From: Candidatus Levyibacteriota bacterium
GTDB lineage: Bacteria > Patescibacteriota > Microgenomatia > Levybacterales > UBA12049
Assembly: GCA_963716145.1 (NCBI GenBank)
Contig: OY970292.1
Location: 533,171-597,170 of the forward strand
Direction: 5' to 3'
DNA: 64,000 nt
The notes below the pieces were generated by a model. That model saw only the letters and a program-made list of their open reading frames with translations, was not told the DNA's origin and did no database searches. Positions 16,264 through 54,873 of the stretch are shown piece after piece. Each line of letters opens with the position of its first letter. Positions within the stretch are counted from its first letter, which is position 1. The position numbers were made by a program, and so were the translations under genes.

Positions 16264-16293
16264 CAACCACAATCTGCTATAATCCATCTATTC

Positions 16294-34089: not shown

Positions 34090-34773
34090 ATGGATACAAC
34101 ACAAACAACCGATCCAAAAGAGAAAGAAGACAAGAAAGTTGAAGAAAAAGCAGAAGACGCAAAACCTGATGTTATTGATACATCCGGTATTGCAGGCGAT
34201 GCTTCGGCAGGCTCAGCACAAGGTGACAAAAAAATTGTAACTGTTCCTGATAACGCCAAGTGGTACATTCTACACACTTATGCAGGACATGAAAATAAAG
34301 TCGCGCGTTCCCTGAAGCAGAGAGCCGAGGCGATGAAGTTTGATGACAGGATTTTTGATATCATTGTCCCGACAAGAAATACCATCAAAGTCTCACAAGG
34401 CAAAAAAGAGACTATTCAGGAAAAGATCTTCCCTGGATATGTTCTGGTCCGTATGATTCTGGATGATGAATCATGGTTCATGGTAAGAAGCACTCAGGGA
34501 GTAACCAGTTTTATAGGAGCAGGAAATAAACCAACTCCTATTTCAGAAAAGGAAGTTGAGGCGATTCAGAAATTTATGAACCTTGATGAGCCTCTTTACA
34601 AAGTAGCCTTCGTGGTCGGTGAAGCAGTCAAAATCACAGACGGACCATTCGCGGAATTCCTGGGAACAATTGACAATATAGATGAAACAAGGGGAAAGTT
34701 GAAGGTGCTGGTAAGTATCTTTGGACGCGAAACACCGGTTGAATTAGACTTTTTACAGGTGAAGAAAATATAG
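34090..34773 (+). CDS. nusG: transcription termination/antitermination factor NusG (acidic N-terminal extension)
   Basis: NGN domain ([15 protein letters not shown]) and a C-terminal KOW. About 55 extra acidic residues at the N-terminus. Confidence 0.85.
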
Positions 34774-34775
34774 CT

Positions 34776-35060
34776 ATGAATTATACAAAAGAAATGCCTT
34801 CAAGAGCAGGTTCTAAGCAAGGAGTAATTAGAGCGTCTAGAGATAACCCTGGAAGCAAGGTTATTATAGAATGGAGTGTGGCCTTTGGAGGGGTTAGAAA
34901 AGCAGTAGGAGCAACAACTTTTAACCCTCGAGTATACACCGCAACAAGATCTTTGGATGGGACAATACCGGAAATAAGGGTAGTTGCTATTAACCCTGAT
35001 CACGCGCTTAAAAGGATTTCTTCTAAAAAATCAGCAGCAAGAAAAGTGGCATACGCATAG
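34776..35060 (+). CDS. small basic hypothetical protein inserted between nusG and rplK
   Basis: 94 aa with native codon usage. Starts 2 nt after the nusG stop. Confidence 0.45.
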
Positions 35061-35065
35061 AAGAT

Positions 35066-35488
35066 ATGGCTAAGAAAATAAAAACACTTATAAAAATCGC
35101 ACTACCAGCAGGAGGGGCAACACCAGCGCCACCTGTCGGAACGGCATTGGGTCCGCACGGACTCAATATCATGGAATTTGTTAAAGCTTACAATGACAAA
35201 ACAGCCGAGCTTAAAGGCAATGTCATTCCGGTTGTGATAACAGTATATGAAGACAGGACATTTTCCTTCATCACCAAAAAACCCCCTGTTGCTGAGATGA
35301 TCAAAAAAGCAATGAGCGTTGAAAAAGGATCCCAGAAGCCGGGACGTGAAAAAATCGGCAAACTTACTATGGATCAGGCAAGGAAAATCGCAGAGGACAA
35401 AATGGAAGATCTCAACACAACAGATGTCGAAATGGGAGCAAGAATAGTCGCCGGAACAGCAAGAAGTATGGGGATTGATGTTAATTAA
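35066..35488 (+). CDS. rplK: 50S ribosomal protein L11
   Basis: [34 protein letters not shown], the canonical L11 sequence. Confidence 0.9.
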
Positions 35489-35557
35489 AAATGAAAACTA
35501 ATAACTTATTACTTATAACTTATAACTTGTCACTGTCGCGACTGAAGGGAGCGAACC

Positions 35558-36481
35558 GTGGGTAAAATAAGAGTTAAAACAATCGGAATTGAAGAAGACG
35601 AAAAAGATCAGAAGAAAAAGGCCAAAGCCAAAGCTGAAGCCAAGCGAATTGAAGCTGCAAAAAAACTCGGGGCAGATACAAAGGCGCAAGAGAGCAAAAG
35701 CGAAGAGGCGCAAAAACTTGCAAACACTGATACCGCAGATAAGTCCGCAAAAACACACGAAAGCAGTGACAGCGTAGTTCCGCGTTCGGTTTCGCGTAGT
35801 TCCGCGGACGAGAGCGAGGCGAAGTCTGCAAAAAAGCAGAGCAAATATAAAGCCAAAACCTCCAAAAAATCAAAACCTCATTCTAGCAATTACTTAACAA
35901 TGTCCAAACTTGTAGATAAAAATAAAAAGTACACAATTGACGAGGCATTGAAAATCCTAAATTCCGCCAACAAACTTAAATTCGATGAGACAATTGAGCT
36001 ACATATAAATACCAACGAAAAAGGCGTATCAGGGAATCTCACACTCCCCCACGGCACCGGCAAAAAAGCCAAAATTGAGATAGCAGATCATGCAACTGAC
36101 CCCAAACATCTTGAAGAACTAATCAAAAAAATCGAGGGCGGAAGTATTGATTTTGACATTCTCATCGCGACCCCTGATACGATGAGTCACTTGGCAAGAG
36201 TCGCGAGATTCCTAGGACCCAAGGGCTTGATGCCAAATCCCAAAAACGGAACGATAAGTCCCAAGCCTAAAGAAGCAATTAAAAAGTTTGAAGGCGGACA
36301 GATAAATTTCAAAACAGAAGCAAAAGCTCCTATCATCCATTTGAGCGTAGGTAAGCTTTCTTTTGGTGAAAAAGATCTGAATGCCAATATCACAACTGTT
36401 CTTCAAGCAGTCCAGACAAAAAATATAAAAAATGTAACTCTTAAATCAACAATGTCACCAGGTATTAAAATTTCTATTTAA
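35558..36481 (+). CDS. rplA: 50S ribosomal protein L1 with an approximately 114-aa Lys/Ala/Glu-rich N-terminal extension
   Basis: The canonical L1 domain begins at the in-frame Met at 35900 (MSKLVDKNKKYTIDEALKIL...GLMPNPKNGT). No stop lies between 35558 and 35900. Confidence 0.8.
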   Translation: MGKIRVKTIGIEEDEKDQKKKAKAKAEAKRIEAAKKLGADTKAQESKSEEAQKLANTDTADKSAKTHESSDSVVPRSVSRSSADESEAKSAKKQSKYKAKTSKKSKPHSSNYLTMSKLVDKNKKYTIDEALKILNSANKLKFDETIELHINTNEKGVSGNLTLPHGTGKKAKIEIADHATDPKHLEELIKKIEGGSIDFDILIATPDTMSHLARVARFLGPKGLMPNPKNGTISPKPKEAIKKFEGGQINFKTEAKAPIIHLSVGKLSFGEKDLNANITTVLQAVQTKNIKNVTLKSTMSPGIKISI

Positions 36482-36540
36482 TCTCTCCAAAATCCTCCAA
36501 CTTATTGACAACTCTTAGCTTTCTACGATAGAGTATTAAT

Positions 36541-36945
36541 GTGACTAATGGTAAAAAAATTATAATTGGCGGAATTTCTATCATCGCGCTGGTTATGCTT
36601 TTTGTCATTTTCGCGCCTTCATCATGGAAATTGCAAAAAAACAAACCATCCCTCAGCCCAACCCCCAACAATTGGCAGACCAATCCTTCAATTATTCCTG
36701 AATCAATGCAAGGCAAGGTTACTGCGTCTCTTTCAGCTGAATTAAAGGAGGTAGATAATTCAAATATTACAGGCGTTACAACATTTAAAGAAATTAATGG
36801 CAAGGTTTTTGTGGGGGTCGTACTTAAAGACGCATCGGCTGATACTGAATATCCGGCATATATCCATTACGGAACCTGTACTGAGCAAAAAGGTCCAAAT
36901 ATTCCCTCAGCCCGGTTGTCAAAGGAAAAACAGACAATTATATAA
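36541..36945 (+). CDS. small secreted protein, function unknown
   Basis: N-terminal TM or signal sequence. Faint beta-sandwich, SOD-like pattern (weak, not relied on). Confidence 0.35.
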   Translation: MTNGKKIIIGGISIIALVMLFVIFAPSSWKLQKNKPSLSPTPNNWQTNPSIIPESMQGKVTASLSAELKEVDNSNITGVTTFKEINGKVFVGVVLKDASADTEYPAYIHYGTCTEQKGPNIPSARLSKEKQTII

Positions 36946-37169
36946 ATACGACAGTTGCAGAATTTAAAAAAGAATTCCCGCTCTCTGTTAAAATCCACAA
37001 ATCTTCAGATGAGCAAGACGGATTGCTCAGCTGCGCTGATCTTAAATAATTCTGCGAAACCGCGTAGGCGGAAAAGCAGAACATCATTCGTATAAATGCT
37101 TTTTTCATTGATTTCCCGCTTTTTAAAATTTTGCTATACACCTAGCCTCAACAATCTGCATTGTGATAC

Positions 37170-37198
37170 TTGACATCTTATAGGGTATTTAATATACT
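37170..37198 (+). promoter_or_regulatory. near-consensus sigma70 promoter
   Basis: TTGACA, 17 nt, TATACT. Confidence 0.4.
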
Positions 37199-37750
37199 GT
37201 GTGGGATTCTTTGGAAGGTAAAGCTGAGAGTGCTTTTTTCGCGCTTTCACCCCAACCTTTTCCTGAAGAACGAAATCGGTAACTGAGATATGAAGGTCCA
37301 AACGCTGGACCAAATCATAACTCTTTTGCACTTTAAAAAACTAGGGATGTATTTTTTGCGTCCCGTAAGGATCATGAAATACTATGGACATCATCTATTA
37401 GCAGTTAAATGCTTTCAAATTTTTGTTGCGACCCATGCTCGCTTCTTCTCTTGTCCCGCGAAGCCTTTTGGCGAAGCGGGAAATCTCTCCGGTTATTTTC
37501 CTAAACTTTAAGCACTACTGTAATTTTGCTTATTTTTATAGGATAATTTATCGGAGAATTACATTCGGGATTGACATCCTACATTGGAGATAAATTATTT
37601 GTCTCCAGCGTTGGATGTCACATCCACCTAATTAGGGCAATTCTCACGGCGACCGCCGGCCCTAGCTTCCCCTAAAGGAGAGACTCGTCCTTACGACAAG
37701 GAGAGACTTTTTCGCAGGGAAAGTATGAGAGACAGACAAGGAGCAACACC

Positions 37751-38385
37751 ATGCAACGTCCATCCATCCGCCGAGGATTCGTGGCCGCTTTGGTCGCAAT
37801 TGGGATCGGTCTTACCACCGCCCCCGCCCCGGCGCTCGCCGACAACACCGACGTCAACGCCATCGTCGCCCAGGCCCGTGCCGACGCCACCACCCGTGTG
37901 GAAGCCGCTCTCGCAGCAGCCAACGCTCGTGTCGCAACCGTCGCCGCCCCGGCCCAGGCCGCCGACAACAACATCACGGCCACCCCGGCCAGCACCACCT
38001 CGGAGGCAACCGCCACCGAGTCCACCTACCAGGCACCCGCCGACACCGGCAACGCCAACAGCGGCACCGTCGAGGTCGCACCTGACCCCGTCGTCGCTTC
38101 GGCACCCGTCGTCGTCGAGGCAGCAGCTGTCGCTGTGGAGGCGCCGCCCCCGCCCCGGCCCTTGCCGTTTCGGCGCCTGTCGCACCCCTGGACTTCAACA
38201 TCCAGAACCCTGCCCAACCGGGGCAGAGGGTGCGCTTCGTGCGTTCCGAGGACGGGTCGTTCAGCGTGATCGCCACCAACAGGACCGGTTCGAACCAGTC
38301 CGCCCGCGTGTTCGCAGACCCCGTCTCGATCGGGATCGGCGTCCGCAACGGGAGCAAGAACTTCACCGGCGTCTTCAGCAGGTAG
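37751..38385 (+). pseudogene. high-GC (about 70%) Actinobacteria-like Ala/Pro-rich secreted protein gene, frameshifted
   Basis: AAGGAG ribosome-binding site 7 nt before the ATG. Signal peptide MQRPSIRRGFVAALVAIGIGLTTAPAPALA. GCC/GAC/ACC/GTC codon usage. The frame breaks in a C-run at about 38140-38165 and continues in another frame (DFNIQNPAQPGQRVRFVRSEDGSFSVIATN...) to the TAG at 38383-38385. Confidence 0.5.
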
Positions 38386-38958
38386 TCGCTTCACCAGGTG
38401 ATGCATCAAGGAAGGTTGACGGAATTTCTGTCTCAGGCCTCGGCTTGACTCAAGAGCTCGTCAGCTCCCCGCGATGCATCGCCTTTAGCTTTTAGCTTGC
38501 AAGGATGATCGTCCTCCTCCCTAGTTGGGAACTTTTTATGTGCCTAAAAAGCGCTAGTTCCCAACAGGGAGGGTGGATTCACTGATGTGGATTTTTCCTC
38601 GTAGAGGAGACATTTTCACATTTGTGATATTTTATTTTTTACGCGTTGCGGCTAAGCTGTTTCTGAGCAATTCGCGCTCCTTTTCACCGCTTACCGCGTA
38701 CCGTTACCCTATCCACCCTCCCTACTTCTATTTTGAGCCCCAATCAGACTTGGCGAAGCCTCGTTTGACGCGGGACTTAGAATAAAAGTATTTCATTATC
38801 TCAAAAATTACTCCTAAGCTCTGATTTATAACCACCATCTACTATCAGTACTTTGTTCCCGTTTGTAATTATTCTTATTTGCTTCTTAGCTGAAGATTTT
38901 TGACGTAGAAAAAACACCTTCATTGACATATAAGCTCCCCTATTTGTATAGTTAAATT

Positions 38959-39816
38959 GTGAGCAAAAAGTTTCTTCTAAACATTCTTACTGTTTCCATT
39001 TTATTTGTATCTGGTACCTTTTTGGTCTGGGCAGCAGCTAGCCCGAATGGGTGCGGAGGTAATGGCGGTACAGCCGGAGGCGTAGGCACCAAAGGATGCG
39101 ATAGCAGCTTCACAGGTTATAAAGGCGGCAACCCAGGCTCAGCAGGAGGAGGAAATGGGAATCCCGGTGGTAATGGATCTAATTTATCTGGGGATGCTGG
39201 TCAATATGGTGCTGGTGGGGGTGGGGGTGGAGGCGGAAGTGCTGGCGTTCGCGGTGGAAATGGAGGAATTGGTGGAAATTTTAATAACTTAGACGGTTTG
39301 GAGAGCGCTTCAGGCAACGGAGGACACGGAGGCTCGGGCGGTGCCTCTACTACCAATAGCGTCAGCGGTGGTGATGGTGGAACTGGAGGATTGGGAGGCA
39401 TTCTACAAAACGATAGCAACACCGGTAGCATAGGCGGAACGGGGGGTAATGGAGGGAAGGGAGGAGATACAGGCACAAGCGGGAGCGGAGCGGGTGTTGC
39501 CGGTGGTGCTGGAGGCGCCGGGGGAAATGGAGGAAATGTGTCAAAAGATACAGGGTTTGGTGTTACTACTTGGGGTAAGGGAGGAACTGGTGGCGTTGGG
39601 GGAAATGGAGGCGCTGGAGGCGATGCAAATGTGTCTGGGAACGGTGGTAATGGTGGTATAGGGGGAAAAGGAGGAAATGGTGGGAACGGAAAGACAAGTG
39701 GAGTTGGCTCCAACGGTGGGGTGGGGGGAAGTGGAGGAGATAGTTTTAGAGGGATTGGAGGAAACGGAGGAACCGGTGGAAATGGTGGCACTGGCTCAAC
39801 TGCAGGTACCCGGTAG
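38959..39816 (+). CDS. N-terminal segment of a giant surface protein: signal peptide plus Gly-rich (GGNGG/GGAGG) repeats
   Basis: TM or signal sequence MSKKFLLNILTVSILFVSGTFLVWA, then about 260 aa of GGxGG repeats. The Gly tract continues in other frames to about 40600. Confidence 0.5.
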   Translation: MSKKFLLNILTVSILFVSGTFLVWAAASPNGCGGNGGTAGGVGTKGCDSSFTGYKGGNPGSAGGGNGNPGGNGSNLSGDAGQYGAGGGGGGGGSAGVRGGNGGIGGNFNNLDGLESASGNGGHGGSGGASTTNSVSGGDGGTGGLGGILQNDSNTGSIGGTGGNGGKGGDTGTSGSGAGVAGGAGGAGGNGGNVSKDTGFGVTTWGKGGTGGVGGNGGAGGDANVSGNGGNGGIGGKGGNGGNGKTSGVGSNGGVGGSGGDSFRGIGGNGGTGGNGGTGSTAGTR

Positions 39817-40640
39817 CCCTGGCGGTGCCGGAGGAGAAGGTTGCGGTGGGCCCGGAGCAGTTGGTTCTCCCGCCTCAGGAAGTACCGGCGGTGCCGGAGG
39901 AGCTGGAGGACCAGTGTGTCTAAGCGGTGGTGCAGGTGGCACGGGTGGTATAAATGGCGGTGCCAGGAGGAGCTGGAGGACCAAAAAACGGCGCTGCCGG
40001 TGGCGCGGGTGGTACAGCCGGTGGAGGCGGTGGAGGCACGGGTCAACTTATAATTATGGGCGGAGGAGGTTCTACAAATTATGCTTATGGAGGAGGAGGT
40101 GGTGGAGGAGGCGCAGGGTACCAATGGTCTAGCTGGCGGTAAGGGTGGAAATGGTGGAGGTATGATAGTAGGTGGAGGAAGTTCTCTCAATTATATGGCA
40201 ACCGGGTCGGGTGGAGATGGAGGAGATGGAGGACATAATTCCAATGGTCCCGGTGGCAAAGGTGGAGACGGCGGGAGTGGTGGAGGTATAATAGGAGGTG
40301 GAGGAGGTTCTGTAAATCATGTATATCGTGGAGATGGGGGTAATGGCGGAAAAGGCGGGAACGGCACAGCCGGTCAGCCGGGTGGTGCTGGAGGAAATGG
40401 TGGATTTAGAAGTGGATACATTGTCGGCGGTGGAGGTAGCTCAAACTATTTTCATGTGGATGGAACTGATGGTGTAGGTGGTGCGGGAGGTGCTGGGTGC
40501 GGTGGCTTTGGTCAGCCTGCATCAGGCTCAACAGGTGGGGCTGGTGGCCCAGGATGCGAGGCGACCAACAGCAGCTTGCAGCAGCGGAAATGTCACCTGG
40601 AGTTGGACCGCCAGTACGAGTAGTCCCTCAACCCCAAATG
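39817..40640 (+). pseudogene. Gly-repeat region of the same gene, broken by at least 3 single-nt frameshifts
   Basis: Gly-rich translation hops between frames, for example ggtgccGgaggagct versus ggtgccAggaggagct at about 39965. The motif SPASGSTGGAGG(A)GGP(V)C recurs. Confidence 0.45.
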
Positions 40641-42265
40641 CACGACTTCAAGTTTTTGATAGCGCTGGAACAACTCTGTTATATGACAGTAACTCTGCTA
40701 TTGGTTCACCAAGAACCACCATTGGATTACCAGGAACTACCTTTAAAGGTCAAGTTAGCTACAACGGAACCAATCTTTACTCCGCACAAACCACTATTAC
40801 TTGCGCCGCAACACCAACATACTCCCTAACAGGCAGTATTTTTATCGATAGCAATGGAAATAATCTGAAAGATCCCGGAGAAAACCCTTACAATAGCTCC
40901 CAATTAAATGTCAGATTACGCAGTGGAGGCTCTACCTGGGATCAGGGCAACACTCCCGCTAACTATAATTATACCGGCCGTTCAGCCGGCGCGTATACCT
41001 TTGAGTTTTTATCGGCTATTCCGGCAGGATACACGCTGGGTCACCCCCCTGGTCCTCCATACCAGTATTCAGTTACTCTAGGTGCGGGATGCACGGCAAG
41101 CCCGCTGCCTCCCGGCAGTCCTGCCATCTGTGACGGATCAAATAACATAGTTGGTCTTAACTTTCCTCTTCAGGTTGTAGTCAGTCGTGTAACCACCACA
41201 ACTCTTTCTTCCTCACTCAATCCATCAACTGTCGGGCAAAATGTCACATTTACTTCAAATGTCAGTGGGGCTTGCGGGCCTACAGGAAATGTAGAATTTC
41301 TTGATGGGGCAGCAGTTATGGCAACAAGAGCATTGGCCGGAGCAACAGCCACATACTCAACTACCACCTTAACTGTCGGAAGTCACAATATTACGGCACG
41401 ATATACTGGCAATGCAGCTTGTGATCCAAGCACTTCCCCGGTTGTGGTCCAAACAATAAATCCCCCACCAAATCAAGCACCTACCATAAGCAACGCGACT
41501 ATTTCGCCCAAACCAATAACCGCAAATGGTTCAACACAATACGCAATAACCCTCACAGCAACCGACCCGAATGGCGGAAATGATATTGGAGCAGAATACA
41601 CAATCATCAACTATCAGGGCCCAAACGCAGGAGCTGGAAACTACCGAGGATATCTTGGATGGTCCACTCTGGGAGCTTCTCCGCCTCCTTATTCTTATCC
41701 CTACTGGACCTCTTCCATTTCTCCAAAACCCTGCGCGCCAGGTGGTGGCCAAGCGGCTGTCAATACCAGCGATGGCGCCACATGGGGACATCAATACATT
41801 AATTTGATAAGCTGTTCTACCGCAGTCGCGGGCAACATCAGGACAGTAACTTTTATTGTGACATTTAATAGTAACTTTACTGCGCCTACTAACAACAATA
41901 CTCTTTCCGGATATGTCCGGGATTGGGGAGGATTGGAAGATACTCCTATTATGAAACCATTTGACACGTTCAATTTGGCGCCGCCTGCAACTTACACAAT
42001 TTCAGGCAGTGTTTTTACTGATATAAGCGGAAATAAGATTAAAGATGGCAGTGAAATAGACTATCCAAGCTCTCCGGGCATAACAAAAAGCCCTGCCGGC
42101 GGAACTGTTACCAATAATGCAAACGGAACTTATAGCATTACTGGATTGTCTGCCGGAACTTACACTGTCTCCTATGGATCTGTCCCCGCAGGATACAATA
42201 TTGTTCATCCCCAAACAGGTCCGCCTCCCCAATTCTCAGTTACGGTTGGCCCGGATGCAGCGTGA
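40560..42265 (+). CDS. central part of the giant surface protein: SdrD-B / Cna-B-like and bacterial Ig-like (Big_3-like) domains
   Basis: Two SGS(I/V)F(I/T)D.NGN.IKD.GE motifs. Ig-like pattern TTTLSSSLNPSTVGQNVTFTSNVSG...GSHNITARYTGNAACDPSTS. The frame ends at the TGA at 42263. Confidence 0.55.
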
Positions 42266-43215
42266 ACCCCACTCCCCCAACAGCGGCCATAGCCTGTGAT
42301 GCTTCGCAAAACATTTCCGGCCTTAACTTCGCGATCAGTAATTCGTCTCCTTGGATACAGGGCTATGACTTGGATATGCGCTTTGATTATGGCTTTAATG
42401 ATGCTATCCCAGGCGGGACTCCATATACTCCCTACGCCTCAGTATTTGACACTTTTAGCAATACTCCTGGAGTTATTTTTTCAGGAGATAGCTCTTACAG
42501 CTTTGGATCGGGCCAAGCATCAATTACTAGGAGTGTTGTTGGGGGCACAACCTATCCTGAAGTTTTTAACTTCCCATCAGGCAACCCTCTGCACACAAGT
42601 TATGGATACTTATCAGGCAATGCCGCGAGTGCCGGAATAACTCCCAGAGATATGGCAGGAAATGATACTTCGGGAAATTCGGTCTGCAGCGGCGGCGGCA
42701 TTGGTAATTGCACTATCCATCCGAATTTACTAAAAGGTGTTTACGGCGCAAATGGAAATGTAAAAATAAACACATCTTCTCTAAAGGCTGCCAGCAATTA
42801 TATTTTCCTCATAAACGGAACTCTAACTATAAATGGAAATATAACTATTCCTACAACCTCAACAGCTCTTTTTACATCAAGCAGCAACATCATAATTGAC
42901 AAGTCCGTTGGAGCAGCAAGTAATTCATTCCCCCGTCCCACGGGACAATTGCAGGGATTCTATAGCGCTGACAATTCTTTTACTATCCAGGGAAACAATA
43001 ATTGCTCTCTCGGAATTGATAAAATGTTAAACATTGAAGGTTCTGTAGTTGTGAATGCCAACGGCACGGGAGGATCTGTTGTGAATCAGCGCAATCTTTG
43101 CGGTGATAATGCCACTATTCCTTCTCTTACGATCGCTCCCCGTCTTGATTTTATTCTCAATGCTCCATCATTTCTGATGGTACCTGATGTTATCTCCAAT
43201 GAAGTCGCACCATAG
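42262..43215 (+). CDS. C-terminal part of the giant surface protein (beta-helix-like repeats)
   Basis: Starts by repeating the PxxPxAAIACDxSxNIxGLNF motif seen upstream. Separated from the previous segment by a -1 frame shift. Confidence 0.45.
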   Translation: MNPTPPTAAIACDASQNISGLNFAISNSSPWIQGYDLDMRFDYGFNDAIPGGTPYTPYASVFDTFSNTPGVIFSGDSSYSFGSGQASITRSVVGGTTYPEVFNFPSGNPLHTSYGYLSGNAASAGITPRDMAGNDTSGNSVCSGGGIGNCTIHPNLLKGVYGANGNVKINTSSLKAASNYIFLINGTLTINGNITIPTTSTALFTSSSNIIIDKSVGAASNSFPRPTGQLQGFYSADNSFTIQGNNNCSLGIDKMLNIEGSVVVNANGTGGSVVNQRNLCGDNATIPSLTIAPRLDFILNAPSFLMVPDVISNEVAP

Positions 43216-43252
43216 TTCAGGATTAAAGATATACGATTAAAGATTAAAGAAT

Positions 43253-43272
43253 CCTGCCTGCCGGCAGGCAAG
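43253..43272. repeat. GC palindrome, copy 2
   Basis: cctgcctgccggcaggcaag, 38 nt after the giant surface-protein gene stop. Confidence 0.6.
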
Positions 43273-43446
43273 TCTTAAATCTTAAATCCCCCAACGTTCC
43301 TCTTTACAATACCTAACTCCCCTGTTATAATCTTCTTATCCTAAGAAATGGTCCTGCAAAGCAGAATTCGAAAGAATCTAGCAGCAGATAAAACATCAAA
43401 GCAGAATCATAAAGTATTCTTCTTTGAAGAACCCATGGAGGATCAT

Positions 43447-43992
43447 ATGCAAGACACATCAACTAAAGTCAGTTCAAACCGCCTCAAAAAAGAAGCTGTT
43501 GTTACAGAACTTTTGCAAAAGGTTGAAAAGGCGCAAGGATTGGTTTTTACAAACTACCAGGGCCTCACACATCAGCAAATCGAATCGCTCAAAAAAGCGC
43601 TAAAGTCGCTTGATGCTGAATATGTAAATACCAAGAACACTCTACTGCTCAGAGCCCTCAAAGATAAGCTTGACACTGAGGCGGAAAAAGATAAATTTCA
43701 GCAGCCTACAGCTACTCTTTTTATGTACAATGACATAGTTGAGCCTCTTAAGCAGCTTGCCAAAACACTTAAAGAGCTAGGTCTTCCAACAATCAAGTTC
43801 GGATTCCTGGAAGGAAAAGTTATGACTGATCAGGAAGTTGTAAAAATCTCCACTCTCCCTCCCCTTCCCGTACTTCGCGCTCAATTACTTGGCAATATGA
43901 AAGGGCCTATTTCAGGGCTGCACATAGCACTGTCGTGGAATATCAATAAACTTGTACTTACATTGAGGGCAATCGAAACTAAAAGGGGATAA
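43447..43992 (+). CDS. rplJ: 50S ribosomal protein L10
   Basis: L10 pattern (KAQGLVFTNYQGLT...LKDKL...). The start is moved to an internal ATG; the track ORF starts at 43348. Confidence 0.8.
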   Translation: MQDTSTKVSSNRLKKEAVVTELLQKVEKAQGLVFTNYQGLTHQQIESLKKALKSLDAEYVNTKNTLLLRALKDKLDTEAEKDKFQQPTATLFMYNDIVEPLKQLAKTLKELGLPTIKFGFLEGKVMTDQEVVKISTLPPLPVLRAQLLGNMKGPISGLHIALSWNINKLVLTLRAIETKRG

Positions 43993-44112
43993 TTGTCCAT
44001 TTTCCAGGCTTCATTTTCCATTGATTGATCAATTTACAAATTTTTTCAATCGAAAATAAATGGACAATGGCAAATGATAAATGGAAGATTACCTACTGGA
44101 AGGAGGTGTATT

Positions 44113-44505
44113 ATGGCAAAAATGAATAAAGACGATTTAATGAAATCAATCGAAGAGATGACGGTTCTTGAACTTTCAGATCTGGTTAAAGCACTTGAAG
44201 AAAAATTCGGAGTTTCAGCAGCAGCAATGGCTGTAGCAGCACCGGCCGCAGGAGCCGCTCCAGCAGGAGACAGCGCACCAGCTGAGGAGCAAACAGTCTT
44301 CAACGTTGTAATTGCGCAGTCAGGAGCACAAAAAATCGCTGTTATTAAAGCACTTCGTGAATTAGTCCCAACTCTTGGGCTTAAAGATGCGAAAGATTTA
44401 GTTGACGCAGCTCCAAAAGAAATAATGAACGGCGTAAACAAAAAAACAGCTGATGAGGCAAAAGAAAAGTTAACAGCAGCAGGCGCTACTGTTGAGTTAA
44501 AATAA
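44113..44505 (+). CDS. rplL: 50S ribosomal protein L7/L12
   Basis: [34 protein letters not shown]...AAGATVELK. Perfect AGGAGGTG ribosome-binding site. Confidence 0.9.
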
Positions 44506-44509
44506 CACT

Positions 44510-44563
44510 AAATAGTATCTAGTATCTGCACTTTTTGAAGTCTCATGCTAGATACTATTTTTG
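44510..44563 (+). terminator. rho-independent terminator after rplL
   Basis: 13-bp inverted repeat aaatagtatctag/ctagatactattt followed by TTTTT. Confidence 0.55.
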
Positions 44564-44580
44564 CGAATGCTTGTTTTATT

Positions 44581-45660
44581 ATGAAAAGACCTAAAAACCT
44601 AAGAATCCCAGGGCCCACAACGCTTTATCCTCAAGTCAGGAAAAAGATGGGCGAACCGGCGTTTAACCACCGTGGTCCGGAGTTTGAAGAAATAATTATT
44701 CAAGCCACCAAAAAACTGCAGGAAGTCTTTCATACCAAAGAAGATGTACTTATTCTGACTACTTCGGGAACCGGCGGACTTGAAGCTGCTATCGTAAACA
44801 CTCTCTCCCCCGGAGACAAAGTGATTGCTGTTTCTATCGGCACATTTGGAGACCGTTTCTCACAAATTGCTGCGTCTTATGGCGCAAATCTTATCGACCT
44901 TGCTTACGCATACGGTACAGCTGCAAATCCGGATGATATCCAAAAAATATTAAAAGCAAACCCTGACGCAAAAGCAATCCTCATAACTCATAACGAAACA
45001 TCAACCGGCGTGACAAATGATCTGAAAACAATCGCAAAAATTGTCAAGGATAATTCCAAAGCTCTTCTTATTGTTGACGGCGTCAGTAGTGTCGCGGCAA
45101 TACCTCTGCGGACTGATGATTGGGGATGTGATATTGTAATTACAGCTTCACAAAAAGGCTTCGGCACGCCGCCCGGAATTGCGATGATCAGCATGAATAA
45201 AAGAGCGTGGATTGCTTATGAAACATCAAAGATGCCAAAATTTTACCTTGATTTAGGTAAGGCCAAAAAATCGCTTGCCAATAAGCAAACCCCCTTCACT
45301 CCGGCAACTCATCAAATTGACGCACTCAATACCGGCCTTACTATTATGCTCAAAGAGACTCTTCCCGTAATTATCAAAAGGCATTCCAATGCAACCAAAA
45401 AAATAAGAAAAGCAGTCAGAGAAATGGGGCTCGAGCTTCTGGCAGACGATAAACATGCCTCAACTGTCCTGACCTCCGTAAAAACAGACCGAGCTTCAGA
45501 AATTGTAAAAGCTATGCGTACAAAAGGAATAGAAATTGCAGGCGGTTATGGTCCTTTAAGCGGAAAAGTTTTCCGCATCGGCCACCTCGGCTTTTTCACC
45601 GAAGCGGAAATTGATGAAACCTTGAAAGCTCTAAAAGTGTGTATAGCGGGCCTCAAATAA
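44581..45660 (+). CDS. class-V PLP-dependent aminotransferase (serine-pyruvate / alanine-glyoxylate family)
   Basis: TTSGTGGLEAAIVN...DGVSSVAAIP...SQKGFGTPPG with the PLP lysine. The start is moved past the terminator hairpin. Confidence 0.7.
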   Translation: MKRPKNLRIPGPTTLYPQVRKKMGEPAFNHRGPEFEEIIIQATKKLQEVFHTKEDVLILTTSGTGGLEAAIVNTLSPGDKVIAVSIGTFGDRFSQIAASYGANLIDLAYAYGTAANPDDIQKILKANPDAKAILITHNETSTGVTNDLKTIAKIVKDNSKALLIVDGVSSVAAIPLRTDDWGCDIVITASQKGFGTPPGIAMISMNKRAWIAYETSKMPKFYLDLGKAKKSLANKQTPFTPATHQIDALNTGLTIMLKETLPVIIKRHSNATKKIRKAVREMGLELLADDKHASTVLTSVKTDRASEIVKAMRTKGIEIAGGYGPLSGKVFRIGHLGFFTEAEIDETLKALKVCIAGLK

Positions 45661-45665
45661 AATCT

Positions 45666-46379
45666 TTATGCAGCCGCAGGCATAGGCACAAGATAATCTG
45701 TATTAAATGTTGTCCAATACCATCCCCCATCATAACCGCCCAAACCGCTCCTGAGCACTTGTTCATCAAGTTCGGCAGCTTCTCTACGATTTAAGCCCCG
45801 GACATTTCTATATACTCTTTGTGCATCTCTCCTCCACCCATCTGGAGGATTAATTGGAAAAACAACGCGGAATTGAGTATCGGGCGGATTAGTATATTTA
45901 AGCGTATTAAGAGATGCTAAGTCATCGGGCATATATCCGGAAAATGAAAGCCAAAATTTAGGACCATTTTCATCACCAGGTAGTTTTAACTCTAGATATT
46001 TTTGTCCCACAGCTGCCTCTCCATCTATATTAGTTTCTCCAGGATAACTACTAACAACTCTATTGACAACCAAAGGACCAACAAGCGCAAATGATGGCTC
46101 TTTCCTCTTTTTGTCATTTGGAGGGTAATCAAAAGTGACATTCAATTCTGGTGGCAAAACAGCTTCAATCTCCGCAGCTGTTCTCATTTTTAGAGGATTA
46201 ACAGGAGCAAGAATATCTCTTAGGTTTTGTCGTGGTTGTGATGCTCCCGCATTTCCTTCAGCGCTCAATCCGGAACCACCTATAGCTCTCCTATTCGAAA
46301 GCGCAATGGCACCACCAATTGTAACTGCGCCACGTATTAATAACTCTCTTCGACTTAAGTCCCCCTCTTGACCACGCAT
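45666..46379 (-). CDS. Tat-signal hypothetical secreted protein
   Basis: Twin-arginine N-terminus MRGQEGDLSRRELLIRGAVTIGGAIAL. Slightly elevated GC. Confidence 0.45.
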   Translation of the reverse strand: MRGQEGDLSRRELLIRGAVTIGGAIALSNRRAIGGSGLSAEGNAGASQPRQNLRDILAPVNPLKMRTAAEIEAVLPPELNVTFDYPPNDKKRKEPSFALVGPLVVNRVVSSYPGETNIDGEAAVGQKYLELKLPGDENGPKFWLSFSGYMPDDLASLNTLKYTNPPDTQFRVVFPINPPDGWRRDAQRVYRNVRGLNRREAAELDEQVLRSGLGGYDGGWYWTTFNTDYLVPMPAAA

Positions 46380-46516
46380 ACTAAATGATTATGAAAAAAA
46401 TCGTTTAAGATGTCAAGATTTAATAATCTTCCCTCTTGACAAAAGGTGTACTAGTTTGTTACTTTAGAGATAGCTCTGAATCATAAGAATAGTACATTAG
46501 TATAGTTAACACTAGT

Positions 46517-46726
46517 ATGAATAATCAAAAGCTATCAATAGATAACCTTCCAGATCTACTTACAGTCCGTGAAGTTGCTGAAGTTCTCCGTGTCTCCCCT
46601 CTTACTATCAAAAGATGGGGTAAAAGAGGAAAGCTTCCGGCAATAAGAATAAACTCACGAGGAGATAGAAGATACAAAAAAGAAGCAGTCCTCTGGCTCC
46701 TCGGCATCCAACCAAAAACTGAATAA
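46517..46726 (+). CDS. excisionase-family / MerR-like helix-turn-helix DNA-binding protein
   Basis: LLTVREVAEVLRVSPLTIKRWGKRGKLPAIRI..GDRRYKKEAV. Confidence 0.6.
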   Translation: MNNQKLSIDNLPDLLTVREVAEVLRVSPLTIKRWGKRGKLPAIRINSRGDRRYKKEAVLWLLGIQPKTE

Positions 46727-46741
46727 AGTCCTCCTATTTAC

Positions 46742-48196
46742 ATGATGACTCATGAATTTGCCAGAAGACATGCCCCTCAAGAACCTCACGACTCGGAGAC
46801 ACTGAGGAAAAAAACCTTCCATATCGAGTCAGGAAATCGACTGCGTGGAGAAGTTAATCCCGGAGGATCAAAAAATGGAGCTATTCCTATCATGTGGGCA
46901 GCTACGCTCTGCAATACTCCTTCAACTATTAGAGGATTGCCTGCGCTTGGAGATACCACAATAAACATGAAGTTGCTCAGGGCATTTGGCGTAAATGTAA
47001 TCCCAGACGGAGATGTTACAACCATCGACCCGCAAAATGTCACAACCGGAACTGCCATAAGAAAAAATATCGAATCTTCAAGAAATAGTATTCTGACAGT
47101 TGGAGCTATGTTAGGGCGTCTCGGGCATGTTACCATCCCTCACCCAGGCGGTGATGCACTGGGACCCAGACCAATTGATTATCACATAAAAGTAATGGAG
47201 GCCCTAGGAGCAAAATTCAAAGAAGATGCTGACGGCATGCAGTTTGAAGCGCTTGATGGATTAAAAGGAGGCTATTATAAATTCCCCCAACCTAGCCATT
47301 TGGGAACAATAAACGGCTTGCTTGCGGCAGTAAATGCAGACGGCTCAACCACGCTTAAAAACTGCGCATTAGAACCTGAAGTTGAAGAATTTATCGATTT
47401 TTTGACAAAGGCAGGAGCAAGAATTAAAAGAGATGGTTTGGACCCCCGAACTATCTTGATTGAGGGAGTACGCGAATTGAATGGTGTTGAGGATTTTGAA
47501 ATATTGCCCGATAGAAATGCGATAGTTACCTACGCAGTTGCTGCTATAGCTACCGAATCTGAGGAAGGAGTCACTGTAAAAGGAGCGAAAAAGGTGCATT
47601 TGAAATCATTTCTATCTTTGCTTGATGAAATGGGAGGCGGATACAAAATTCCAGATGACGAGAACGAGGACTGGATAAGATTTTTCTATAAAGGAGAATT
47701 GACTGCACCAAAACGCACTATAGTAACTTGCCCGTATCCCAATGACCAATTTGGTAATGAAAATTACCTTGGCATAATGACTGACTGGCAGCCGCTTGTA
47801 AGCTTATTACTCTTAAAAGCAAAAGGTACTTCAAGAATTATCGAAGCAGTACATCCTGATCGGTTCCAACACTTAAATAGTGCTTCTTCTGCAGGAGCAA
47901 ATATAGAATTTTTTGATCCAAAAATAGAAGATCCTGAATTGGGGTACTTTTTTAGAGATGAATTCGACAAAAAAAATCACGGAGCGGTCATTACCGGTGG
48001 AACGCTTTTCAGTAAGGAAATTCCAACCTCTGAAAGTGATGATGTAAGGCTAAGCGCGTTTAATATGATTGCGGGACTTTCGCTGACCCAACCGGGAGTA
48101 ACCACTATCATGCACAGCCCGCTGCACCTGGAAAGAGGCTATGAAGATCTTACTGGAAAACTCCAATCTCTCGGCGCTAATATTTTAGCGGCTTAA
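46742..48196 (+). CDS. murA: UDP-N-acetylglucosamine 1-carboxyvinyltransferase-like enzyme (MurA/EPT family) with Asp at the fosfomycin-target position
   Basis: Aligns with E. coli MurA end to end (KNGAIPIMWAATL... HLERGYEDLTGKLQSLGANI). The active-site loop reads PGGDALGPRPIDYH where E. coli has PGGCTIGARPVDLH. Confidence 0.8.
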   Translation: MMTHEFARRHAPQEPHDSETLRKKTFHIESGNRLRGEVNPGGSKNGAIPIMWAATLCNTPSTIRGLPALGDTTINMKLLRAFGVNVIPDGDVTTIDPQNVTTGTAIRKNIESSRNSILTVGAMLGRLGHVTIPHPGGDALGPRPIDYHIKVMEALGAKFKEDADGMQFEALDGLKGGYYKFPQPSHLGTINGLLAAVNADGSTTLKNCALEPEVEEFIDFLTKAGARIKRDGLDPRTILIEGVRELNGVEDFEILPDRNAIVTYAVAAIATESEEGVTVKGAKKVHLKSFLSLLDEMGGGYKIPDDENEDWIRFFYKGELTAPKRTIVTCPYPNDQFGNENYLGIMTDWQPLVSLLLLKAKGTSRIIEAVHPDRFQHLNSASSAGANIEFFDPKIEDPELGYFFRDEFDKKNHGAVITGGTLFSKEIPTSESDDVRLSAFNMIAGLSLTQPGVTTIMHSPLHLERGYEDLTGKLQSLGANILAA

Positions 48197-48318
48197 ATAT
48201 ATAACGCCACGAAGAAAATAAAACATTAAATTACTACGTTGGGTTAAATTCGTCTTTGAAAGCTAAGGTAGGTGTACCACATTATTGAAAATGATTGCAG
48301 AGTGGTATAATTAGATTC

Positions 48319-48579
48319 ATGAATAGCGACTACATTTCTCTGATAGGTTTTGCGGCGGCGACTTTGACTACTGCCTCTTTTTTACCACAGGTGGTTCAAA
48401 CTCTGAAAACCCGTAAAACAAAAGACATTTCACTGGGTATGTATATCGCTTTCACGATTGGGATTACTCTCTGGGGAATTTACGGTTTTCTTATCGGGTC
48501 CCCACCTATTATCATCGCCAACATCATAACTTTTGTTCTGACTTGCATTATTCTATATCTCAAAATCAAACATGGCTGA
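48319..48579 (+). CDS. SemiSWEET (MtN3/PQ-loop) sugar transporter
   Basis: 86 aa, three TM segments, PQ motif (SFLPQVVQTLKTRKTKDISLGMY). TATAAT at 48305-48310 suggests a near-leaderless transcript. Confidence 0.6.
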   Translation: MNSDYISLIGFAAATLTTASFLPQVVQTLKTRKTKDISLGMYIAFTIGITLWGIYGFLIGSPPIIIANIITFVLTCIILYLKIKHG

Positions 48580-49648
48580 TGACTATCAACAAGTAAAGCA
48601 AAACTTTTTTTCAGAGCTCAAAGCCGCCTCAAACAATAAAAAAAGCAGTCTCTCATACATAAAAAATGACCTTTCTCAAAAACCTCTTGTAGAAAATGGT
48701 ATTGTTCAGGTGATAGTAGTGGGCGGGACAAATTATATTTCCTCATTAGTCAAAGTGGTAAACGGAAAAAATCAGAGTCTGAGTATTGAAAAAGGTAAGT
48801 TGCCTATCTTCAAAACACGTAAAGATTTTTCTCTATTTCTGGATAAAACTCTAAGCAAAGATGCTGAGGCTTTAGGAATCAATTTCGCCTTTCCGCTCTT
48901 GCCCACTACCGGACTTCTGGGAGCGCTTGACGGGATACTTATAAAAGTCACCAAGGAGCACAAATTTATTGGACTTATCGGAAAGCGTGTCGGGGAATTT
49001 GCCGGAAAACAGTATTTTAAAAAATATAAAAACTTTATACCCGTTACAGTTGCCAACGATACAGTCTGCCTCACTCTTTCGGACCAAGGAGAAGCGGATG
49101 GCGGAATGGTCTTGGGGACTGGATTTAACATGAGTTTGAAAACAAGCGGAAAAGCCAAAAAAACGATAATCAATTTAGAAGCCGGCAATTTTAATGGTTT
49201 TGAGATATCCGATACTCTTAAAAAAATTGATGAGATATCTGAAAAACCGGGAAATATGCTGTTTGAAAAAGCTGTTGCCGGTAAATACCTTGTGGAGGAT
49301 TTTAATGAGCAGGCAAAAGCGTTAGGGACAAACTTCGCTTTAAAAACAACCGAAGATTTGTCCCATCTTGCGAAAACAAACCATAAGGCTGAGGGTGATT
49401 TGGCGCAATCAGTTCTGAAAAGGTCAGCATTTTTTATCGCAGGGGCCCTTGCCGGAGTTTATGAATTCAGAAACCGTCCCACCAAACTTGAATTCGTTAC
49501 AGAAGGTAGTTTGTTCTGGAAAGGATATAAATATCAAGAAAATGTACAGAAACAATTAATCGGGCTAGGAGTGCCCAAAAACGCAATAAGATTTAAATAC
49601 GTAGAAGACAGCAGCCTAAAAGGCGCGGTAGGTTTATTGATTAAATAA
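48572..49648 (+). CDS. hexokinase-family sugar kinase
   Basis: VIVVGGTNYISSLV (matches LDLGGTNFRV), LGINFAFPLLPT, VTVANDTV. These follow the order of the hexokinase signature motifs. Confidence 0.55.
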   Translation: MADDYQQVKQNFFSELKAASNNKKSSLSYIKNDLSQKPLVENGIVQVIVVGGTNYISSLVKVVNGKNQSLSIEKGKLPIFKTRKDFSLFLDKTLSKDAEALGINFAFPLLPTTGLLGALDGILIKVTKEHKFIGLIGKRVGEFAGKQYFKKYKNFIPVTVANDTVCLTLSDQGEADGGMVLGTGFNMSLKTSGKAKKTIINLEAGNFNGFEISDTLKKIDEISEKPGNMLFEKAVAGKYLVEDFNEQAKALGTNFALKTTEDLSHLAKTNHKAEGDLAQSVLKRSAFFIAGALAGVYEFRNRPTKLEFVTEGSLFWKGYKYQENVQKQLIGLGVPKNAIRFKYVEDSSLKGAVGLLIK

Positions 49649-49683
49649 TTTCCAATTTTAAATTTCAAATTACAAATTTCTAA

Positions 49684-50058
49684 TTATTTTCTTTCTTTGC
49701 CGTTTATGCCTGCGTTTTTGATAATTGTGCTGACAATCGCAACGATCTCGCTTCCCTCTTTAACTAACAATTTAACCTCAGGCATATAAATTTCCGCATT
49801 TGTGCTTTCTATCAAACGCAGCCAAAAAATTGTTTCTTTTCCTTCTTTTCTTACTATTGTAAAGCCATGAATAAAATCCTTCCTGGTTAATGCACCATCG
49901 GCTTCTTGATCATTTGCGCCCATTGAGGTTACTGAGCGAGTCAATTGATTAATAAATACTAAATTGGTTGCTGTTTTTGGAAGTTTATTTAAAAACTTAA
50001 TAACCGATACTATAAATTTAAAAATCCGTTCGTGAATATCGTAGTTTTTTGCAATCAT
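49684..50058 (-). CDS. four-helix-bundle protein (23S-rRNA-IVS-protein family)
   Basis: SVTSMGANDQEADGALTRKDFIHGFTIVRKEGKETIFWLRLI matches the family pattern S.GAN..EA.G..S.KDFI...IA.KEA.ET.YWL.L. Confidence 0.6.
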   Translation of the reverse strand: MIAKNYDIHERIFKFIVSVIKFLNKLPKTATNLVFINQLTRSVTSMGANDQEADGALTRKDFIHGFTIVRKEGKETIFWLRLIESTNAEIYMPEVKLLVKEGSEIVAIVSTIIKNAGINGKERK

Positions 50059-50133
50059 TGGGTATTTGAAATTTGAAATTATAAATTTGAAATTCCTATG
50101 CTCTCTTCCGGTACTCTGCCTGGTGTTCTTTTT

Positions 50134-51165
50134 TTATCTTCTCATGATCCGGCTCCAGAAATGTTCCTTGATAAACCCAAACGTTTCCGCAGGGTCTTGC
50201 GTATTAACAATAATATTTGTACCCAATTCAAATCCGCCGATGATTTTAACTCTTGGAATCAAGCGCAAATACCAGTTTTTGCCGGGATAAATATAGAAAT
50301 TAAATGGAAATTCATGACCGTGACGCAGATCAAAAATTTGTATCAATCGAGACAAAACAAAGCTCAAATCGGTAATTTCTTCATCTTTGATGAATCCAAA
50401 CCCTCCACCGTTCTGCTTTGGTGCTATCCATGCTTCGTCCGGCCAATCACTCGTTGCGGGGCAGAAGATCAGGAAATGCTCCGTTTCCAATTTTCCATCG
50501 TCCATGTTCCACTTTCCATTTATTTCTTTATTGGACAATTTGGAAATTGAAGATTGCAAATCATTGGAAAATGGTAAATGGGAAATGGAAGATCTATTTG
50601 CTGAATCTTTTTCATAAATAGCCTGATCCAACGGAGTTATATCCAACTTAATATTGTGCGGAATCACCACCAGTTGCGTATGCGGATGTCCAAGGCTTGC
50701 GCCCGCGGATGAGCCCGAATTGTGAAAAATATAAACCCGCCCGCCCTTTTTGTGAGTATTAAACCTCTGCTTGTAAGTTTGCAGTATCAACTCAACAGCT
50801 GATAAAGGCAATTCATCAAAGCTCTTGTGATGATCCGGGGAATGAATTACAACCTCATGATTCGGAGCAAAAGGAAATTTGTTGGCTACTACTCTAACAA
50901 GCCAATTTGAGTCTTTCGGAAAACTCTGAACACTCGGTTCGCCGGATGTATCTGACGGTCTGACAATCTGAACGTCTGACCCTCCGGCTTTCTGAGGATT
51001 CTGAGTATTCTGAATTCTATAAAGTTCTTCCTCGGCAATTTCATTTCCCGGACAAAAAGGGCAAATATCCACGGCTTTTTCAACATTTGTACGATGCGAG
51101 CGCCTGGGAGCAGAAACCACCCATTTGCCGTTAATTTTATTCTGTAAAAATTTGAAATCAGCCAT
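50134..51165 (-). CDS. galT: galactose-1-phosphate uridylyltransferase (HIT family)
   Basis: Zn-binding CPFCPGNE and HPH motif (GHPHTQLVVIPH). Confidence 0.75.
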   Translation of the reverse strand: MADFKFLQNKINGKWVVSAPRRSHRTNVEKAVDICPFCPGNEIAEEELYRIQNTQNPQKAGGSDVQIVRPSDTSGEPSVQSFPKDSNWLVRVVANKFPFAPNHEVVIHSPDHHKSFDELPLSAVELILQTYKQRFNTHKKGGRVYIFHNSGSSAGASLGHPHTQLVVIPHNIKLDITPLDQAIYEKDSANRSSISHLPFSNDLQSSISKLSNKEINGKWNMDDGKLETEHFLIFCPATSDWPDEAWIAPKQNGGGFGFIKDEEITDLSFVLSRLIQIFDLRHGHEFPFNFYIYPGKNWYLRLIPRVKIIGGFELGTNIIVNTQDPAETFGFIKEHFWSRIMRR

Positions 51166-53525: not shown

Positions 53526-53548
53526 AAATATTTCTCTTCTTACGTTCT

Positions 53549-53711
53549 ATTGTGAGCATTCAAACAAAGCGCGTAAAGAAATTGTGAAATGAGTTGTCAG
53601 GGGGAAACTGGCCGAATGAGCCGAGGGGGTGTTATCACCCGACAACGAATGAACAATTTTAGCGTGACTTTGCGCGAACGAGTTTTTGGTTCTTTTGTCG
53701 GCACAAAAGAA
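53549..53711 (+). repeat. copy B of the conserved structured element
   Basis: Aligns to 16065-16263 with two deletions, the same long-range helix and terminal hairpin (ttcttttgt-cggc-acaaaagaa). Sits at the left boundary of a GC-richer segment. Confidence 0.55.
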
Positions 53712-54046
53712 TGAAGAAAAGTATTTTCCCCAATCTATCAATTAAAATTGGTAAATTAAAGAAAACAGGCATACAAGGACAAAAGGGTCTCCAACGGGAG
53801 GACAAACGGCGTAAAAACGCAGAAAAGTACTCGATCCGGGGGAGGATCACTCAATTGTAAAAAGACGGGAGACCGCCAAGTCCTTGTTTCCCACCGCTTG
53901 TGGTGAGTAAGTTTCCATGATGGAACGCCCTTCTTTCAAAGCTTAGAAAGCTATATCCACCTTGGGAGTCAGAAGTTCACTACACTTCCATATGAGCGTC
54001 CGATCGACACTCGACTCCCACCTCACTACTTCATTCTCAGAAGTAG

Positions 54047-54355: not shown

Positions 54356-54381
54356 CAGGAACCCACGATGGGGCTACCTAG

Positions 54382-54609: not shown

Positions 54610-54636
54610 TGCTGCTTCTCCTCTCTCAGCGCGGAT

Positions 54637-54852: not shown

Positions 54853-54873
54853 CTGTACGTTTCCTCCGTTTCG

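Follow-up and report, generated by a model that had tools for sequence, protein, structure and literature searches.

In a Candidatus Levyibacteriota bacterium (Patescibacteriota; Microgenomatia; Levybacterales; UBA12049; assembly GCA_963716145.1), the ribosomal protein genes rplA and rplJ, which encode L1 and L10, stand apart with a block of genes for putative surface proteins between them. We analyzed this rplA-rplJ interval within a window of 64,000 nt (contig OY970292.1, positions 533,171 to 597,170 of the forward strand), and the positions given here are those of the window unless a related contig is named. The host genome is Levybacteria-like, within the candidate phyla radiation, and 1.14 Mb in size; the GC content of the window is about 0.40. 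The interval measures 6,965 nt (36482-43446) if rplJ starts at 43447, and 6,866 nt if the start of its open reading frame (ORF) at 43348 is used. In six outgroup loci the same spacing is 32-183 nt, so the initial annotation was right that about 7 kb of unrelated genes split the pair. The interval comprises three units with the following features, where L002, L084, L085 and L087 are related contigs described below the list.

36505-36534, + strand: promoter-like TTGACA-18-TAGAGT of unit 1; 6 nt separate the -10 from the GTG start of the small ORF, in a layout shared with L002
36541-37049, + strand: unit 1, small ORF for a membrane-anchored protein, 169 amino acids (aa) when intact, frame-shifted here by a missing C at 36894
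37170-37198, + strand: promoter TTGACA-17-TATACT, matching 11 of 12 consensus positions, conserved, at the head of the middle module (unit 2)
37205-37412, + strand: conserved non-coding 5' block of about 210 nt (nhmmer E 5.7e-21 to L087 and 8e-9 to L085)
37413-37750, + strand: variable, very stable hairpin-rich leader directly upstream of the GC-rich ORF
37751-38385, + strand: GC-rich ORF of unit 2, for a small secreted protein of about 211 aa, with one frame change in C-runs at about 38142-38160
38390-38800, + strand: structured 3' region with a conserved core at about 38590-38790 (folding z -7.4 on the + strand and -5.35 on the - strand)
38923-38952, + strand: promoter TTGACA-18-TATAGT of unit 3; the -10 ends 6 nt before the start codon, a layout kept in L002, L084 and L087
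38959-43215, + strand: unit 3, large adhesin-like protein of about 1417 aa with its frames joined (Big_3_5, E 1e-18; SdrD_B, E 5.9e-9)

The initial annotation treated this block as an insertion peculiar to the window. That claim is not borne out, as four related contigs carry the cassette at the same site. The relatives that a search with the L1 protein returned are metagenome bins, labelled Levyibacteriota or mislabelled. Their gene orders, with the identity of their L1 to that of the window, are as follows.

L084 (85%): nusG-rplK-rplA-small ORF-104-aa ORF-1236-aa adhesin-rplJ-rplL-aminotransferase
L085 (82%): rplA-(toxin-antitoxin pair)-small ORF-GC-rich ORF-(HicA/HicB-like pair)-1330-aa adhesin-rplJ-rplL
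L002 (76%): rplA-small ORF-963-aa adhesin-rplJ-rplL, with no middle gene
L087 (74%): rplA-small ORF-middle module-start of the adhesin gene

Adjacency of rplA and rplJ thus holds for the outgroups but not for these closer relatives. What varies among the latter is the slot between units 1 and 3, which spans 180 nt in L002, 0.69 kb in L084, 1.9 kb in the window and 2.5 kb in L085, where it includes the HicA/HicB-like pair. The two toxin-antitoxin-like pairs of L085 (9372-9904, an 85-aa ORF with a CopG-like ORF; 12341-12839, a HicB-like ORF with HicA) lie inside the rplA-rplJ locus, and indicate that its internal slots accept small selfish modules. Other Levybacteria differ at this junction: L004 and L014 have different genes there, while L001 and L016 have no rplJ within 5.6-10 kb of it. 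The rplA/rplJ junction is therefore a variable slot in the phylum, and the content of the window is the version of its own sub-clade. In L001, the C-terminal 47 aa of L1 are encoded again (11771-11911) 0.9 kb past rplA, apparently as the scar of a duplication that accompanied an insertion at this same junction. Some L001 ORFs with a high-GC appearance were considered as a second foreign island and rejected, since their GC content is only 0.41-0.52.

The continuity of the contig can be judged from an independent k-mer assembly of run ERR11593400. Logan contig L021 reproduces 35144-39344 in one piece and Logan contig L022 matches 43354-50142, both at 99.9% identity; the part between them, 39345-43353, is backed only by its colinearity with the proteins of L084, L085 and L002. 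Unrelated DNA joined between rplA and rplJ during assembly would account for the abrupt composition changes at about 37640 and 38500, and the source assembly is of the metagenome type. However, every composition change has sequence syntenic with relatives on either side, the order of genes recurs in four contigs, and the left and internal junctions, for which a chimera is refuted, fall within the piece that L021 reproduces. A chimera is for these reasons extremely improbable. Because four relatives share the cassette and L021 reproduces the left and internal junctions, we set aside both a chimera and a recent insertion, and we consider it probable that the rplA-rplJ interval is a clade-conserved accessory surface-protein locus of three units that has been inherited in this lineage.

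Unit 2 is where the composition of the locus is most unusual. GC content of its ORF is 0.65-0.71, with a peak of 0.72 in 37800-38199, and the GC content of third codon positions (GC3) is 0.78-0.88 in the window, 0.76 in L085 and 0.66 in L087, compared to 0.21-0.39 in neighboring genes. The encoded protein begins with a signal peptide of the RR type, followed by an Ala-rich linker and a C-terminal domain that contains an NPAQPGQ motif. Over 55 aa, this domain shares 40% identity with the product of the 104-aa ORF of L084 (E 1.3e-6); the L085 homologue has 284 aa, is likewise GC-rich, and matches the window at the DNA level (E 6.7e-5); and the 91-aa homologue in L087 has the same NPAQPGQ motif. 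Beyond these, a word search of 5.8e9 proteins returned no homologue outside the clade, an exhaustive search of 1.8e9 representatives gave one low-complexity match only, and no Pfam family matched. On the strength of these searches, the family is clade-specific and has no homologue elsewhere. The DNA of 36950-38950 has no match to plasmids or phages, and both a protein scan of viral contigs and an exact-pattern scan were empty. A public protein collection does hold a 256-aa Pro/Arg-rich product that runs over the GC-rich gene in the wrong frame (37725-38495, + strand), and is probably a mis-annotation in the source record.

A recent island, made up of an orphan promoter, an adhesin and the remnant of a foreign gene from a GC-rich donor such as a host bacterium, would readily explain a GC of 0.65-0.72 and a GC3 of 0.78-0.88 in a genome where the corresponding values are 0.40 and 0.35-0.39. 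The RR signal peptide and Ala-rich composition are typical of high-GC Gram-positives, and no DNA match to the 1.83-kb segment 37049-38877 exists in L084. Set against this, the cassette is present in four related contigs; the promoter, both flanks and the ORF are matched in L085 and L087, which share the compositional anomaly, and L084 retains the protein domain. The locus lacks homologues in other lineages and plasmid, phage or viral matches, and no mobility signature (tRNA target, integrase, transposase or flanking repeats) was found at it. We therefore regard a recent island as quite unlikely, and for the cassette as a whole as largely refuted. The 70% GC of the initial annotation is real, but a foreign origin is not demonstrable for a gene whose homologues occupy this position in L084, L085 and L087.

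The promoter at 37170, first described as strong and orphan, is indeed present with 11 of 12 consensus positions, but it appears to head a conserved transcription unit. Matches to the promoter consensus are common in the window (28 found, compared to 17 expected in shuffles), and we take this one as real because it is conserved in L085 and L087: in the alignment, both hexamers and the spacing are identical in L087, and L085 has a single hexamer mismatch (TTGACT). The 5' block downstream of it is taken as non-coding because indels among its three homologues are not multiples of three; a 73-aa ORF at 37290-37511 was considered and rejected, as the homologues differ there by indels of 1-2 nt. A 49-nt palindrome at 37572-37620 lies in the hairpin-rich leader that follows, as does another promoter-like site, at 37571. 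Past the ORF, a 3' block of about 150 nt is again conserved (nhmmer E 1.5e-8 to L087 and 6.6e-5 to L085).

Both flanks are predicted to fold strongly, and compared with shuffled controls both do so more strongly on the + strand than on the - strand. For 37205-37750 the folding z is -8.7 on the + strand and -5.3 on the - strand, with 160-nt tiles reaching -8.3, while the GC-rich ORF itself is not structured (z -0.3). Among 213 window tiles of 300 nt, the module flanks rank 3rd, 5th and 6th by folding, beside tRNA clusters. A stable leader recurs, with no sequence similarity, in L085 (z -8.7) and L087 (z -6). In the 3' core, AGGGAGGGUGGAU (38566-38578) pairs with AUCCACCCUCCCU (38711-38723) to form a closing helix that in the window, L085 and L087 reads GGGAGGRUGG/CCAYCCUCCC with one G-C to A-U exchange; SD-like and anti-SD-like (SD, Shine-Dalgarno) strands are paired in this 3' region. 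Compensatory pairs among the three copies are few, namely a CCUC/GAGG hairpin and the G-C to A-U exchange of the closing helix. Long-range pairing of the 5' block with the 3' region was considered and rejected, since the L087 partner is a local hairpin homologous to a local hairpin of the window. Rfam returned only 4 tRNAs for the window at gathering score, and nothing credible in 36400-39000 at E<5 or in the L087 and L085 modules at E<1.

Could the middle module (37170-38800) instead be a mobile or exchangeable cassette, whose folded ends serve as single-stranded DNA sites for recombination or transposition, and which has entered the slot repeatedly? The content of the slot differs in every genome, long palindromes with tiny loops (37572-37620, for example) occur in the module, its composition is unlike that of its surroundings, and the closest relative, L084, has it in reduced form although the more distant L085 and L087 carry it. 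However, there is no recombinase, transposase or reverse transcriptase nearby, and there are no terminal repeats or target duplications. Comparisons with an integron cassette, a group II intron and a retron gave no integrase or reverse transcriptase ORF and no Rfam intron match, and by inspection the module hairpins do not fit attC core sites. No second module occurs in the 64 kb or among 87 loci, its fold is stronger on the transcribed + strand, and a conserved promoter stands at its 5' edge. We consider such mobility improbable, though less so than a recent island.

As part of an inherited locus, the middle module might tentatively be viewed as an undescribed Levybacteria RNA-protein unit, either as a dual-function or specially stabilized transcript in which selection acts on the non-coding parts, or as a locus where some local process holds the GC3 of a rapidly evolving gene for a secreted protein at 66-88% in genomes of 34-44% GC. 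Candidates for such a process are GC-biased conversion at a recombination hot spot and selection against AU-rich RNase sites. Strongly structured or dual-function transcripts are familiar from RNAIII of Staphylococcus aureus with its hld gene, the STAB-SD of Bacillus thuringiensis cry3A and the 5' untranslated region of ompA. Like these, the module has its own promoter and a short ORF between strongly folded 5' and 3' parts; it differs in having no sequence or Rfam relation to them and in that its ORF encodes a secreted protein of 87-284 aa with extreme GC3. The folded flanks may act on the RNA of unit 2 through stability or translational control.

For unit 1, only 4 homologues were found among 5.8e9 proteins, all of them next to rplA. 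The protein has an N-terminal membrane helix and a predicted 8-stranded beta-barrel ectodomain (AF2 pLDDT 74), for which the best Foldseek matches are all Cu,Zn superoxide dismutases (SODs; prob 1.00, E 5e-3, TM 0.37-0.57), while no Pfam family matches, Sod_Cu included. A Cys pair is conserved, and the only invariant His residues are H108 and H153. The likeness to Cu,Zn SOD thus lies in the beta-barrel fold, and because two invariant His replace the six His and one Asp that serve as metal ligands, the protein is probably not an active SOD. The structural model offers a weak case for describing it as a membrane anchor with a Cu,Zn-SOD-like ectodomain, and we do not file it as a SOD. In the window the ORF stops at 36945 and its C-terminal 51 aa continue in another frame, whereas L021 has CCC instead of CC at 36894 and an intact 169-aa ORF.

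Unit 3 encodes a protein laid out as a signal peptide, a region of about 550 aa with 44% Gly, SdrD_B-like and Big_3_5 Ig-like modules, and a C-terminal domain of about 310 aa ending in EVAP, an ending shared by the intact orthologues of L084 (1236 aa), L085 (1330 aa) and L002 (963 aa). In its signal peptide, its SdrD_B-like and Big_3_5 modules, its large size and its low-complexity repeats it resembles Sdr/MSCRAMM adhesins. It differs from them in its 44% Gly region, which takes the place of Ser-Asp repeats, in the C-terminal domain that ends in EVAP, and in the absence of an LPxTG sortase motif (LP.[TSA]G) from the window protein and from the L084, L085 and L002 orthologues. The AF2 model of the C-terminal domain has a pLDDT of 64 overall and above 84 for residues 110-300, and gives a weak Foldseek match to the DUF3494 ice-binding-like beta-helix (E 6e-3, prob 0.98, TM 0.3-0.5); it has no Pfam match, DUF3494 included. 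Relatives of this domain form 12 protein clusters and occur at 61 metagenome loci, sometimes as a stand-alone gene. They are found almost only on metagenome contigs, and a few carry Pfam SdrD_B or SpaA matches. The idea that the domain is always tied to ribosomal genes was rejected, as none of the 61 metagenome loci is near L1, L10, L11 or L12. In units 1 and 3 the -10 hexamers stand 6 nt before the start codons, both here and in relatives (L002 11606-11612), which suggests that their mRNAs are leaderless; the GC-rich ORF and rplJ have leaders with SD sequences.

All three genes are out of frame in the window. The initial annotation described a 4.3 kb adhesin-like gene, and a 4.26 kb adhesin-like coding sequence is present, but it is not one intact ORF here: translation in three frames, and tblastn searches with intact orthologues, reveal a reading in frames 1, 2, 0, 1, 2 and 1 in succession, with changes near 39811, 39959, 40119, 40552 and 42256. 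Together with one change in the small ORF and one in the GC-rich ORF, this makes seven, all of them single-base indels at or adjoining short G/C runs or inside the G-rich repeat region. The public gene calls of the source record correspond to these broken ORFs, with products of 116 aa, 317 aa and, from a wrong frame, 256 aa. Two other candidates were rejected: frame shifts at the methylation/restriction motif GGTACC, which has 7 sites compared to 6.2 expected, of which the five away from the changes lie in open frame; and a split MIP gene at 8610, which is intact.

Whether these breaks are uncorrected consensus errors or real and very recent decay is finely balanced, with the former only slightly the likelier. 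If the locus is decaying, all three genes are real pseudogenes and the seven indels are genuine, having arisen after selection on a surface locus was relaxed. The confinement of every disruption to 36.9-43.2 kb would fit this, with no other clearly split gene noticed in the window (a few ORF pairs were checked), as would the agreement of the public gene calls with the broken ORFs. Nearly all differences of L021 and L022 from the window are 1-nt indels, and L022 breaks rplL (window 44252) and aroA (47862), both intact in the window, from which one may take the deposited consensus to be generally good. The same breaks also mean that the read set is error-prone and that indel differences are not readable as strain variants. 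Neither assembly has the GC-rich ORF in frame, as decay would have it, but the phase is not the same in the two, a sign of miscalled C-runs; the "remnant" of the initial annotation comes down to one single-base frame change in such a run, which differs between the two assemblies. Against decay, seven indels would be expected to bring stops, yet there are no deletions and the joined frames of the adhesin contain 0 internal stops in 1417 codons, its segments being colinear with the intact orthologues. The events also fall at short G/C runs or G-rich repeats, where consensus calling and polishing are hardest, and the relatives L084, L085 and L002 keep their copies of the locus genes intact. The small ORF is intact in L021, whose restoration of it by random error is unlikely; elsewhere, L021 departs from the block conserved in L085 and L087 exactly at its difference from the window. 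We give decay of all three genes a somewhat less than even chance.

Several points weigh against a clade-conserved locus of three functional units as we have described it. The closest relative, L084, keeps the small secreted-protein gene with an ordinary GC3 of 0.35 and without long flanks; the middle module is therefore not universal, and the direction of change is uncertain. All seven disruptions lie within 6.4 kb, and no clear split was noticed in the other ORFs of at least 120 aa in the window (only a few ORF pairs were checked); this clustering fits relaxed selection as well as local error-proneness. The fold matches of units 1 and 3 are weak (Foldseek E 5e-3 to 6e-3), and the small ORF, the GC-rich ORF and the adhesin C-terminal domain all lack a Pfam family. 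We infer from sequence the promoters, the leaderless layout and a role of the flanks at the RNA level, and consensus-structure tests on the flanks had three independent copies only and gave covariation terms of about 0.

The borders of the interval carry the following features.

35558-36481, + strand: rplA (L1), the left border (Pfam Ribosomal_L1, E 3.7e-33; 85% identical to the L1 of L084)
43253-43272, strand unspecified: terminator-like GC-rich palindrome CCTGCCTGCCGGCAGGCAAG past the adhesin stop, with a copy at 4277-4310
43303-43446, + strand: rplJ promoter TTTACA-17-TATAAT (with TG) and a leader of about 110 nt; L002 keeps the promoter and the first part of the leader
43348-43992, + strand: rplJ (L10) ORF (Pfam Ribosomal_L10, E 9.4e-19)
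43447-43992, + strand: rplJ with its probable true start, the right border, from alignment of residue 1 to the L10 of L084, L002 and L085

The start of rplJ is probably 43447 and not 43348, because of the L10 alignment with L002 and L084 and because GGAGGA stands 5 nt upstream. The palindrome is part of a longer match, CCTGCCTGCCGGCAGGCA(G/A)G at 4277-4310 and 43252-43285, each copy directly past unrelated genes, and looks like a repeated terminator-like element. L1 itself, 307 aa in total, has a Lys/Glu/Ala-rich N-terminal extension of about 110 aa (35558-35890), which is also found in L001, L002, L003, L004 and L084. Upstream, the order is nusG (34090-34773), a 94-aa ORF, rplK (35066-35488) and rplA, and downstream of the interval rplJ and rplL are followed by an aminotransferase gene. 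The nusG/rplK gap (34776-35060) with its 94-aa ORF differs among relatives, which have PDDEXK_3, a 128-aa ORF or ORFs of 86-88 aa there, and is a second variable slot of the same cluster.

In proteobacteria, the rplKAJL-rpoBC block is extremely conserved, and where it is split the break falls mostly between rplKA and rplJL (PMC4481853). The locus described here sits at this same weak point, the boundary of the rplKA and rplJL transcription units. Compared to the Escherichia coli model, with its PL11 and PL10 promoters and L10 leader, the window has the same nusG-rplK-rplA...rplJ-rplL order and an rplJ promoter of its own with a leader of about 110 nt. It differs in the roughly 7 kb between rplA and rplJ, in having the aminotransferase gene and not rpoBC after rplL, and in that no match to the Rfam L10_leader was found in the rplJ leader. 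If rplJL is transcribed from this conserved promoter and leader, the locus would not disturb ribosomal-protein expression. Mycobacterium tuberculosis presumably offers a parallel in the mmaA/lipG region between rplK-rplA and rplJ-rplL, a multi-gene cell-envelope block of unrelated genes in an unrelated lineage. Between these borders, three units, each with what would be its own sigma-70-like promoter, would supply a SOD-like anchor protein, a small secreted protein from a GC-rich ORF and a giant, fibre-like Gly-rich surface protein, and these exported products may decorate the cell surface of a bacterium whose life is presumably spent attached to other cells.

Elsewhere in the window, about 1.7 kb at 53525-55300 is ORF-poor, with a GC content of 0.51-0.55, no Rfam match at gathering score and no strong structure, and may be another degraded or non-coding region. 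Two stretches are shared between 16122-16263 and 53588-53711 (25 nt and 34 nt, at 88% and 91%), at the start of a 559-aa gene (16123-17802) and at the edge of the ORF-poor region. The tiles 1501-1800 (z -4.8) and 8701-9000 (z -3.7) also fold unusually well, the second lying inside the aquaporin-like MIP gene at 8610-9218.

Overall, the break in synteny is of an ordinary kind, at a known weak point that hosts lineage-specific surface-protein genes. The compositional island, the orphan-looking promoter and the broken frames suggested junk or foreign DNA, and comparison with relatives showed these features to be conserved or possibly artefactual. The non-coding parts of the middle module are at least as conserved as its ORF, and extreme GC3 has been kept across L1 identities of 74-82%. 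Such persistence is hard to accommodate in amelioration models, and may point to a regulatory RNA of a new kind or to a bias of mutation or conversion that acts locally. The three exported proteins are candidates for the host-contact functions of this uncultivated lineage.

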